From: Candidatus Kaiserbacteria bacterium RIFCSPHIGHO2_01_FULL_53_29
GTDB lineage: Bacteria > Patescibacteriota > Minisyncoccia > Phycocordibacterales > UBA2100
NCBI GenBank assembly: GCA_001781125.1
Contig: MFKT01000021.1
Location: 5,178 to 69,177, forward strand
DNA length: 64,000 nt
Direction: 5' to 3'
Numbering within the stretch: the stretch's first letter is position 1; the number at the start of each line of letters is the position of its first letter. A program made the translations under genes and the position numbers. The notes under the pieces are model-generated. The model did no database searches and was not told where the DNA came from. It worked only from the letters and a program-made list of their open reading frames with translations. Below are positions 6,512-7,973 of the stretch, one piece after another.

Positions 6512-6638
6512 GGCCTATGGTGTCTCATACTTCCACAAAACCTATTGCAAAGACGGGCCTTCGCCACGACGACCCGCGCTACGCCGAAAGCTCCGGCGAG
6601 GCGAGAGCGGGCTACGGCCCCGCGAAGGCGGGATTGAA

Positions 6639-6753
6639 CCCCGTTAGAAATAGCGGGCTTTCAGAAAAAGATATTCCACGGGTCGGAAATAGAGTATGAA
6701 CTATGCTTCCAACCTCTCTCCCCAGAAAAACGCCCGCCCTATTTCTAACGGGG
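6639..6753. mobile_element. MITE-like element, family A, copy 2 (115 bp)
   Basis: Terminal inverted repeats CCCCGTTAGAAATAGCGGGC ... GCCCGCCCTATTTCTAACGGGG. Direct 4-bp duplication TGAA at 6635-6638 and 6754-6757. The 3' end abuts or creates the GTG at 6753. Confidence 0.6.
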
Positions 6754-7973
6754 TGAACCTCAAGAATTTCGTTGTGCCGACGCGCCACCGGAGATCAGCT
6801 TTTGATCTCAAAGAAGCGCGCGTAGTCGCGATAATCCCGACGTATAAGCCCGAGCGGCTCACGACGAAGCTCGTTCTGGACCTCACGCAGTGGAACCCGG
6901 ATATCCGTGTCGTTGTCGTTGACGATTGCACACCGGTGGACTATACCGAAGGCGCTGCGATCTTCGCTCGCATTCGCTCGGTCAGAGATCGCATTACGGT
7001 GCTTCGTACGCCGGTCAATAGAATGAAAGCGGGGGCCCTCAATTACGCGCTGGAGCACATATTTGCGCTGGGGGATGAAGACATGCCCGATGTCATTTTG
7101 AGTTTGGACGACGACATCGTCATCGCGCCCTCTACCGTGCGCAATCTCGTGACCGAGCTTATGAGCTACGATACGCTTGGGGCAGTGTGTTCCCAATCGC
7201 GTGTGCTCAATAAGAATAAAAACCTGCTCACTCGTTTGCAGGGGCTTGAATACGTAGGATTCAATGCGACCCGATTGGCGGACGAAGGTTTTTACCGTGG
7301 ACCGCTCGTGATGCATGGCATGTTGACCGCTTTCCGTGTATCGGCGCTTCGCGAAGTGGGCAGGTTTGCCGAGGGACATCTCATCGAGGATTACGAGATC
7401 ACGACACGGCTCAAGACTCGCGGGTGGAGTGTGAAGTTGGCGGGTTCCTCTCCCGCATGGACAATGGTCCCGGAAACGTTCTCCAAGCTCTGGCGACAGA
7501 GAACCCGTTGGTCATACGGCGGTATTACGGTCATCACCAAGGTTACCTATCTACCGTCGGTCCTGCAGGATCTGATCGGGCACGGTGTCTTCTTCGTGAC
7601 CGTGATCATGATCGGCCTCATGCTCGTCTTTAGGAGCACCAGCACGGTACCCACCCACATCACAGATTGGATAGTCGGGCTCTCACTTCTCCAGCTTGCA
7701 CTCTGGTACGCGTTCCAGCTGTGGCTCATGGGGTTGTACAGGGAGAGAGATAGATATGATTGGATCATACGCGTGAGCCTTCTTCCTGAATTCATATACA
7801 CCAATATACTCACTTTTATCGTGCTGGGCTCGTATCTGTTTCTCCTTTTTAATATGCTGACGCACGCGGTCACGCGTCAGAGTGGGAGTGTCGTACGGCG
7901 CCTCACTGCTTTGGGCGCGGCGCTCTTTGCCGTATGTGGGTATACGAAGGGATGGGGTACGCGAACGAATTAA
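6696..7973 (+). CDS. family-2 glycosyltransferase, processive beta-glycan synthase type (QxxRW), with C-terminal TM helices
   Basis: AIIPTYKPE motif; DD motifs VVVDDCTP and LSLDDDIV; QRTRWSYGG (Q(Q/R)xRW); four or more C-terminal TM segments. The ATG at 6696 lies inside MITE A2. Alternative in-frame GTG at 6753 sits exactly at the element/duplication junction. Confidence 0.7.
   Translation: MNYASNLSPQKNARPISNGVNLKNFVVPTRHRRSAFDLKEARVVAIIPTYKPERLTTKLVLDLTQWNPDIRVVVVDDCTPVDYTEGAAIFARIRSVRDRITVLRTPVNRMKAGALNYALEHIFALGDEDMPDVILSLDDDIVIAPSTVRNLVTELMSYDTLGAVCSQSRVLNKNKNLLTRLQGLEYVGFNATRLADEGFYRGPLVMHGMLTAFRVSALREVGRFAEGHLIEDYEITTRLKTRGWSVKLAGSSPAWTMVPETFSKLWRQRTRWSYGGITVITKVTYLPSVLQDLIGHGVFFVTVIMIGLMLVFRSTSTVPTHITDWIVGLSLLQLALWYAFQLWLMGLYRERDRYDWIIRVSLLPEFIYTNILTFIVLGSYLFLLFNMLTHAVTRQSGSVVRRLTALGAALFAVCGYTKGWGTRTN

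Follow-up and report, generated by a model that had tools for sequence, protein, structure and literature searches.

Where does a gene start when both of its candidate start codons lie in a repeat? We addressed this question for a GT2 glycosyltransferase gene in a 64,000-nt window of the genome of Candidatus Kaiserbacteria bacterium RIFCSPHIGHO2_01_FULL_53_29 (contig MFKT01000021.1, positions 5,178 to 69,177 of the forward strand; all coordinates below are those of the window). The gene is annotated at 6696..7973 on the + strand (Pfam Glyco_trans_2_3, Glyco_tranf_2_3 and Chitin_synth_2). A first-pass annotation had proposed that both of its possible starts are supplied by copy 2 of an inverted-repeat family, here called Family A, and the positions reported below bore this out. 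We consider it likely that copy 2 is a non-autonomous transposable element that resembles a MITE (miniature inverted-repeat transposable element), that its family inserts in start codons and rebuilds them, and that ribosomes would return to the host gene by termination and reinitiation.

Copy 2 and the start of the GT2 gene

Copy 2 is a hairpin element of 115 nt with a terminal C..G pair (6639..6753, + strand), delimited by its inverted repeats and its fold. As the first-pass annotation had noted, it is flanked by TGAA on both sides (6635..6638 and 6754..6757, + strand), which we read as a 4-bp target-site duplication. The left terminal inverted repeat CCCCGTTAGAAATAGCGGGC (6639..6658, + strand) and the right one GCCCGCCCTATTTCTAACGGGG (6732..6753, + strand) are 15-22 nt long with the core YCCCGTTAGAAAT, and the predicted fold has a 21-bp closing stem (z = -4.3). 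The annotated GT2 start, ATG 6696..6698, lies inside the element on the + strand and overlaps the stop codon of the upstream frame, TGA 6697-6699, as ATGA. The second candidate, GTG 6753..6755 on the same strand, arises at the junction from the terminal G of the element and the TG of the right duplication, so that both placements agreed with the earlier proposal. The short open reading frame (ORF) at 6508-6699 reads through the left arm as NPVRNSG, and the GT2 ORF (6696-7973) reads the right arm as ARPISNG, hence its ISNGV. Because each of these peptides spans an arm, their resemblances are translated repeat, which confirms that the similarity is an artefact.

The conserved part of the GT2 protein starts at LKNFVVPTRH, 3' of both candidate starts, as judged from the N-termini of its homologues. 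Among 120 GT2 homologues, the 19-aa leader MNYASNLSPQKNARPISNG was present in one 98%-identical protein only; conservation of this leader in unrelated orthologues would have spoken against a repeat origin. The remaining homologues had unrelated N-termini of 0-25 residues followed by a conserved [LF]K[NS]F[IV][VL]P.R motif. The closest leader-free homologue (P0003, 73% identity, GCA_030647655.1) is encoded at locus L120, where the target is intact: a single GTGAAT stands between ...AAAGAAAGGG and CTCAAGAATTTT, at the position of the left TGAA of copy 2, and the element is absent. With its upstream context as aligned, this site is ATGGCATCTCTTGTATCCGCAAAACCGGCAAAGAAAGGG-GTGAAT-CTCAAGAATTTT, and the protein MASLVSAKPAKKGVNLKNF reads MASLVSAKPAKKG-VNLKNF across it.

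The alignment with L120 places the ancestral GT2 start at ATG 6517 (MVSHTSTKPIAKTG...), in a frame that is now broken. This codon is located 180 nt 5' of the annotated start, 5 nt past the stop codon of the preceding ORF (6509-6511) and 3 nt past a GAGG (6510-6513). From the same alignment and the ORF list, a remnant upstream frame (6517..6699, + strand) begins at ATG 6517, crosses an insertion X and reads across the element's left half before it ends at TGA 6697-6699. Insertion X (6558..6628, + strand) is 71 nt long, ends in CCTTCGC/GCGAAGG, lies between CGGG repeats at 6554-6557 and 6629-6632, and is missing from L120. Together with one repeat it amounts to 75 nt, or 25 in-frame codons. We rejected it as a repeat family, with no further copy in other loci and a fold that was not significant (z = -1.5). 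Copy 2 lies just 3' of this unrelated insertion, and the comparison with L120 indicates that it landed approximately 14 codons into the ancestral gene at a (G/T)TGAAC site, not on the ancestral start codon.

As the 119 nt of the insertion cannot be divided by three, the old frame was broken, and it now terminates at TGA 6697-6699. As predicted from the present reading frames, the GT2 synthase can now start only at the in-element ATG 6696 or at the junction GTG 6753. Both are 5' of LKNF and some homologues begin at this motif, so either start would give a plausible enzyme. No promoter-like site was predicted in 5800-7000, and the gene is therefore probably read within an operon. We favor termination-reinitiation at the ATGA overlap, with ATG 6696 as the GT2 start. 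Ribosomes would still initiate at the ancestral ATG 6517, translation of the 60-codon remnant would melt the 21-bp stem, and termination at TGA 6697-6699 would be followed by reinitiation at the overlapping ATG 6696. GTG 6753 would be an alternative start, and either product would retain LKNFVVPTRH onward.

Distribution and subfamilies of Family A

The repeat is not restricted to the GT2 locus. With up to two mismatches, the 15-mer CCCCGTTAGAAATAG has six matches in the window, which form three convergent pairs (1661/1791, 6639/6753 and 22462/22573), compared with 0.08 occurrences expected by chance and a maximum of one in 100 shuffles. The three copies that these pairs delimit have only about 20 nt per end in common, and their interiors are unrelated.

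To assess the distribution of the family, we scanned one genome per GTDB species with the pattern CCCGTTAGAAAT-N(75-105)-ATTTCTAACGGG and obtained matches in more than 119 species, which is a lower bound. Among the matches listed, most were from the Candidate Phyla Radiation (CPR)/Patescibacteria, including Saccharibacteria, Kaiser-, Doudna-, Yanofsky- and Nomurabacteria, Kazan and others, and a minority came from metagenome-assembled genomes (MAGs) of Desulfobacterota, Planctomycetota, Omnitrophota and Nitrospirota. The most frequent subfamily, A1 (left arm ...AAATCGCGGAC, right arm ...CCTATTTCTAACGGG), was sought in metagenomes as well, where it was present on at least 120 additional contigs. 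Pooling the matches listed by the genome and metagenome pattern scans gave 284 copies, so the family has at least 284 distinct copies, mostly in CPR/Patescibacteria, with the core YCCCGTTAGA(AAT). These scans demanded exact arms, and the apparent conservation of the arms is therefore inflated; many of the matches are from MAGs, and the gene starts used below were inferred, not annotated. No viral contig matched the family pattern. The copies measured 40-130 nt. Their density was 3-4 in a 64-kb window, and the other loci had roughly one additional copy for every 36 kb.

Copy 2 could be aligned with 100 A1 elements and is a decayed member of this main, A1-like subfamily. A second subfamily has compensatory changes in its left hairpin, a ATTAACTAATTG motif on the right with stops in three frames, and the same polarity. 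Family A is thus a widespread and apparently start-codon-targeting family of elements, not a local repeat. Rfam gave no match at the gathering score in the whole window, and copy 2 and an intact copy had chance-level hits only (E < 1). In text searches on sequence and concepts, we found no description of the family or its sequence in the literature.

A distinct subfamily was observed in Desulfobacterota-type MAGs. It has TTTA/TAAA duplications (GTTTAC flanks) and ends of about 30 nt (AATGCCCCGCTG...) that are conserved between species, and it was seen at loci L060 (2475-2599, 3922-4014 and 6727-6825), L062, L069, L088, L092 and L002. Its copies lie mostly away from start codons, and those of L060 separate small ORFs.

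Insertion and reconstruction of start codons

The flanks of the genome matches followed the pattern ATGAA(T/C)-CCCG...CGGG-(A/G)TGAA. The bases just outside CCCG and CGGG were complementary, as a Y..R pair, in 279 of the 284 copies, and an exact 4-bp duplication was present in 200 (70%). This duplication was mostly TGAA; TGGA, TGAG, TGCG, TGTA, TAAA, CGAG and others also occurred, identical on both sides. In 212 of 284 copies (75%) the terminal purine and the next two bases formed the ATG, GTG or TTG of a long ORF, a proportion that reached 96% (118 of 123) for A1 alone. The left and right start codons were ATG/ATG in 144 copies, ATG/GTG in 24 and GTG/ATG in five. Such a pattern fits a 4-bp duplication with a terminal Y..R pair that belongs to the element; a duplication of 5 or 6 bp predicts otherwise.

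We then searched for empty sites by querying all fetched DNA with the proteins encoded 3' of the elements, and found 56 homologous gene starts without an element. In the filled and empty pairs inspected, the duplicated bases correspond to nucleotides 2-5 of the native ORF. For example, ATGCGT-element-ATGCGC at L072 and L121 corresponds to the empty ...cgTTATAATcgacgcgcATGCGC of L141, ATGAGT-element-ATGAGC at L020 to ATGAGC at L022, and ATGGAT-element-ATGGAA at L116 to ATGGAA at L186 and L124. The family thus combines the hallmarks of a MITE: terminal inverted repeats, duplications of fixed length and variable sequence, empty sites, and multiple copies too small to encode a transposase. Tandem pairs, with one element placed in the start codon that another had rebuilt (...CGGGATGAT-CCCG...), were also seen at L126 (6132-6366), L007 (7674-7895), L085 (6362-6579), L182 and L210. 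They suggest repeated targeting of the same kind of site.

The two other copies in the window illustrate different outcomes of insertion. Copy 3 (22458..22577, - strand) has the typical arrangement of the family, at the start of a HAD-hydrolase gene with a junction GTG at 22462-22460. Its reconstructed ancestral sequence, ...TAAACATTGTA-TGAA-ATGCCCC, or ATGAAATGC, encodes MKC..., a normal HAD N-terminus (MKCPHAVIFDLDNTL). The present sequence is ATGAAC-element-GTGAAATGC; the ancestral ATGAA has become ATGAAC-element-GTGAAA, and, with G as the last base of the element, the host start is now GTG where it was ATG. The HAD gene also gets a spurious 19-aa leader from an ATG at 22519, inside the element. 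Copy 1 (1657..1795, + strand), recognized from its arms, the ORF list and its fold, is a nested pair. The outer element (1661-1791) has the target-site duplication TCAA, and the inner one (1706-1764, 59 nt, + strand) has CAAG at 1702-1705 and 1765-1768. These two elements lengthen the gene for a 1448-aa surface protein by 72 and 63 nt after codon 6, in each case in frame and with no stop. The protein, of the HYR/DUF11 type, carries 45 extra residues between MNKLLS and its hydrophobic segment.

Target sites and host genes

We compared the location of the copies with that of possible targets. In 1.58 Mb of contigs, TGAA was found at approximately 12,350 coding and 3,240 non-ORF sites, at 237 stops and at 382 ATGAA starts. 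Start codons hold 75-96% of the copies, although ATGAA starts represent only 382 of about 16,000 TGAA sites, and 'stop-only' positions were rare (4 of 130). A preference for TGAA combined with purging of gene-disrupting insertions does not obviously explain this bias. Either integration favors start regions or copies elsewhere are lost faster.

No Shine-Dalgarno motif was found 5' of the left ATG in element-bearing loci, and TATAAT-like hexamers peaked 12-14 nt 5' of this codon. This spacing implies that transcription starts at or next to the A of ATG, as in a leaderless gene; leaderless status is deduced here from promoter spacing alone. Under a strict criterion (-10-like hexamer at -15..-11), 62 of 203 element-bearing starts were positive versus 197 of 1437 in a baseline made of the first ATGs of other long ORFs on the same contigs. 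Hence, leaderless starts appear to be common in these genomes and about two-fold enriched among the hosts of the element. Over all fetched CPR loci, about 14% of the first ATGs of long ORFs carry such a hexamer 12-14 nt 5', which suggests that leaderless transcription is widespread there irrespective of the element.

The host genes encode RuvB, aminoacyl-tRNA synthetases, ribosomal proteins S8 and L9, FtsW/RodA, penicillin-binding proteins, TIM and SSB, among others, and no functional theme emerged from the 172 Pfam families in 148 proteins. These hosts include essential genes and their expression must therefore survive the insertion; to judge from the sequences, insertion must leave the host gene unsilenced. 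In the window itself, an inverted repeat of GCCA(C/T)TAG-like units (ATAGCCATTAGCCACTAGCCATTAG / CTAACCTCTAGTGGCTAATTACTAT) at 28451-28541 stands directly 5' of an ORF that starts at 28540. A homologue of this ORF, at L091, has a Family A element at its start.

Orientation, reading frame and structure

The orientation of the element relative to the gene was fixed, in 31 of 31 copies of one set and in 118 of 123 A1 copies, and none was observed in reverse. The upstream side of A1 is always occupied by the short arm; the long arm carries a 4-nt bulge (TCCT) and always adjoins the rebuilt start. Through the right repeat, ...TCTAACGGGRTGA, TAA comes to lie at -7 and TGA at +1 from the rebuilt start, so that in two of three frames a ribosome coming from upstream stops beside this codon.

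We also determined whether the reading frame set by the captured host ATG is open. Since the arms themselves close the other two frames, the control used interior-only counts and shuffles. In the genome set, the interior was stop-free in the captured-ATG frame in 29 of 84 copies, compared with 7 and 8 in the other sense frames and 10.8 +/- 2.9 in shuffles. For A1, the frame ending at TAA (-7) was open in 32 of 44 copies and stopped within 30 nt in six more (38 of 44 open or nearly so). The frame ending at TGA (+1) was open in 6 of 19, and the frame in phase with the host gene gave readthrough in 1 of 26.

A closing stem of 13-21 bp was present in every copy that was folded (z = -4.2 to -6.4). 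The pairing takes in the first base of the rebuilt start codon, and in most copies it extends to the second. No conserved interior structure was detected, RNAalifold on 102 copies recovering the closing stem only.

Mechanism and alternative explanations

The reading we prefer for Family A, a MITE-like element that rebuilds the start codons it enters, can be laid out as follows. Moved by a transposase that would act in trans, the element typically inserts at nucleotides 2-5 (TGAA) of a start codon, often that of a leaderless gene, and its terminal purine together with the duplicated TG rebuilds an ATG or GTG. In a leaderless transcript, the captured 5'-terminal AUG should still recruit ribosomes. 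On entering the element these would melt the stem, terminate at a stop codon no later than that of the right repeat, and reinitiate at the adjacent rebuilt start, thereby returning to the host gene. The hand-over might also involve opening of the stem by partial translation, cleavage of the stem by RNase III, or direct initiation.

A more ambitious version is plausible, although we would not call it probable. The family would be specialized for the start codons of leaderless CPR genes, integrating at transcript positions +2 to +5, keeping the host AUG for its own frame and handing ribosomes back through the rebuilt start and its built-in stops, so that even essential genes can be occupied. Targeting to promoter-proximal DNA, and not selection alone, could then account for its location.

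Several observations weigh against the preferred reading or limit its scope. About half of the copies, including copies 2 and 3 of the window, stop early in the captured frame, and full-length translation is therefore not obligatory. No identical elements were found at two different loci, and recent mobility is at most a possibility. There was no autonomous copy in 1.66 Mb of fetched loci, with collection scans covering elements up to 600 bp; we rejected the long-range arm pairs with matching duplications, all of which combined separate small elements. A phmmer search with the ISEcp1 transposase against 4,407 ORFs (loci and window) also gave no match, in what was a single-sequence query of a biased sample. 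Copy 2 is itself atypical, as it stands within the coding region of an operon gene instead of at a leaderless start, and the GAGG at 6510-6513 is merely 3 nt from ATG 6517. Lastly, elements at the same gene in diverged genomes had an interior identity of 0.54-0.84, which is close to the coding identity and above the third-position identity. This may fit a retained and possibly useful leader better than pure junk, or it may reflect repeated insertion of related elements.

The last point bears on the most serious alternative, namely that the elements are functional 5' leader modules, a stem and a sequence-agnostic frame, serving mRNA stability, RNase III processing or translational control. We think this rather unlikely as the main explanation, while noting that it is compatible with a mobile origin. 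Same-gene interiors at least as similar as the coding sequence, arms that are invariant across phyla, the fixed orientation, the maintained openness of the frame and the presence of copies on essential genes would all agree with it, as would the retention of RNase III and RNase J by CPR genomes (PMC12641178). Conversely, part of the arm conservation is ascertainment, exact arms having been required; the hosts lack a functional theme, the interior structure is not conserved, half of the copies have broken frames, and many orthologues work without an element.

It is improbable that the main subfamily encodes a functional micropeptide of about 38 aa (MNPVRNRGR...SASYF) translated from the host start codon. 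The frame open or nearly so in 38 of 44 copies of canonical length and a weak shared motif, [NS][RQ][IV]GxG, would be in line with such a product. However, the captured peptide showed no codon periodicity, with entropies of 1.69/1.73/1.64 at codon positions 1/2/3, and related pairs differed 77/83/86 times at these positions, with 31 synonymous versus 134 non-synonymous changes. Moreover, the conserved ends of the peptide are translated arms, and there was no Pfam match. An NRIGFG motif and third-position wobble seen among close relatives vanished with more sequences, and the micropeptide was rejected. Selection appears to act on translation through the element, not on its product.

Slightly less probable still is that Family A consists of REP/REPIN-type hairpins moved by the two IS200-like Y1 (RAYT-like) transposases of the window. 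The two Y1_Tnp genes are flanked by perfect hairpins, and TTAGAGGC is common to one of these and the inner element of copy 1. These hairpins are confined to the Y1 genes and differ from the Family A arms, and we rejected this origin because they are unrelated and unique and because Y1 homologues are rare near elements (2 of 240 element-bearing loci). The duplications of Family A also vary yet match on both sides, whereas Y1/HUH transposition (IS200/IS605) makes none. As a separate observation, the Y1_Tnp genes are paralogues with HUH and Y motifs (14033-14837 and 34014-34753), each bracketed by a near-perfect hairpin pair (ACCTTAGAGGCGTCGCCTCTAAGGT and ACGATGAGATGACATCTCATCGT) that occurs nowhere else in the window.

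Two further possibilities are very improbable. A promoter inverton, flipped by a site-specific recombinase to make surface or glycosylation genes phase-variable, was suggested by the shared inverted repeats around unrelated interiors of about 100 nt beside a surface protein, the GT2 gene and a sugar-phosphatase-like gene, but was rejected given the variable, matching 4-bp duplications and the empty sites, which indicate insertion, the asymmetric arms that face one way in 118 of 123 and 31 of 31 copies with none seen reversed, the mostly housekeeping hosts and the lack of any promoter predicted inside copy 2. Integron attC sites were considered because the elements are imperfect palindromes, 60-130 nt in length, whose centers vary while their ends (containing GTTAGAA and TTCTAAC) are conserved, and because copies separate small ORFs in some non-CPR contigs (L060), but the attC polarity on either strand is 5'-RYYYAAC...GTTRRRY-3', the reverse of the 5'-GTTAGA...TCTAAC-3' of Family A, which has target duplications and occurs as single copies at CPR start codons, not in cassette arrays; on polarity, attC was rejected.

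Relation to known elements

As to the enzyme that moves Family A, one of the IS1380/piggyBac type is a lead only. The IS1380 family comprises prokaryotic relatives of piggyBac. Ends that start with CC(C) and include TAGA are seen in piggyBac (CCCTAGAAAG), in ISEcp1 (CCTAGATTC) and also in Family A ((Y)CCCGTTAGAAA). The 4-bp duplication is T-rich with a 3' AA, being TTAA with the variants TAAA and TCAA in IS1380/piggyBac (PMC10813416) and TGAA, TAAA or TCAA in Family A. Family A differs by its extra terminal Y..R pair and its non-palindromic TGAA target.

MITEs that share a transcript with a gene, and that in some cases are translated, are a known kind of element, and the nearest analogues are the Correia elements and the Rickettsia palindromic elements (RPEs). 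The Correia elements of Neisseria (CREE/NEMIS) are MITEs of about 100-150 bp that duplicate TA, have 26-bp repeats and form stems that are substrates of RNase III. They resemble Family A in size, terminal inverted repeats, short duplication, lack of a transposase, mRNA hairpins and frequent location at the 5' ends of genes; their repeats are unrelated, and Family A is concentrated in CPR. To our knowledge, Correia elements are not found in start codons, do not rebuild them and have no captured open frame. RPEs are small mobile palindromes tolerated as in-frame translated insertions in genes, like copy 1 (72 + 63 nt) and insertion X (75 nt) of the window. They have no evident sequence relation to Family A, most copies of which stay out of the host protein (readthrough in 1 of 26 in phase), and we know of no association of RPEs with start codons.

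Two other systems offer functional parallels. In coupled upstream ORFs and leader peptides (ATGA overlaps, erm/cat-type), a short frame ends at or near the main start, and the amino acids are unconstrained in many coupling upstream ORFs. As in these systems, translation of the Family A frame would open a stem that sequesters the start; unlike them, this frame arrives with a mobile element and uses the start codon of the host gene, and no regulatory signal or stalling motif was identified. Translational bypassing of insertions in coding sequence is known from the T4 gene 60 gap and the mitochondrial 'byp' elements, which likewise are short structured insertions between matching short repeats that the synthesis of the host protein survives. 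For Family A a bypass is neither required nor indicated, and the host frame would restart at the rebuilt start. In our text searches, we found no description of an element positioned in the start codon, of a start rebuilt from a terminal base, of repeat-borne stops or of a captured, sequence-agnostic frame.

Consequences for annotation and other features of the window

The annotated N-terminus of the GT2 protein (MNYASNLSPQKNARPISNG) is transposon sequence, foreign to this enzyme family. Probably hundreds to thousands of CPR proteins carry such spurious leaders (...ISNG[MV], ...FLTG) or are accompanied by spurious small ORFs (MNPVRN...) of this kind. Both create false peptide similarities, and the HAD gene of the window shows the same 19-aa artefact. 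If the model proposed for the family is true, its ends are built to preserve host translation. The family would then be a natural system in which to study leaderless initiation and termination-reinitiation in organisms largely without Shine-Dalgarno signals, and it would explain how mobile DNA is tolerated in reduced, gene-dense genomes.

The window contains other repeats. A 192-aa PaaX-central/Cas2-like gene at 20395-21051 lies between 39-nt inverted repeats (79% complementary) and has homologues in L151, L019 and L198. A 40-nt direct repeat, CTGCGGCAGGAATTATTCGAAATTGTACTAGCCGGGTATG, occurs at 8075-8114 and 55101-55140, 47 kb apart and 93% identical. Finally, a gene at 11326-13602 encodes a 758-aa collagen triple-helix repeat protein with DUF7151, and it is the source of large 9-nt-periodic repeat families.

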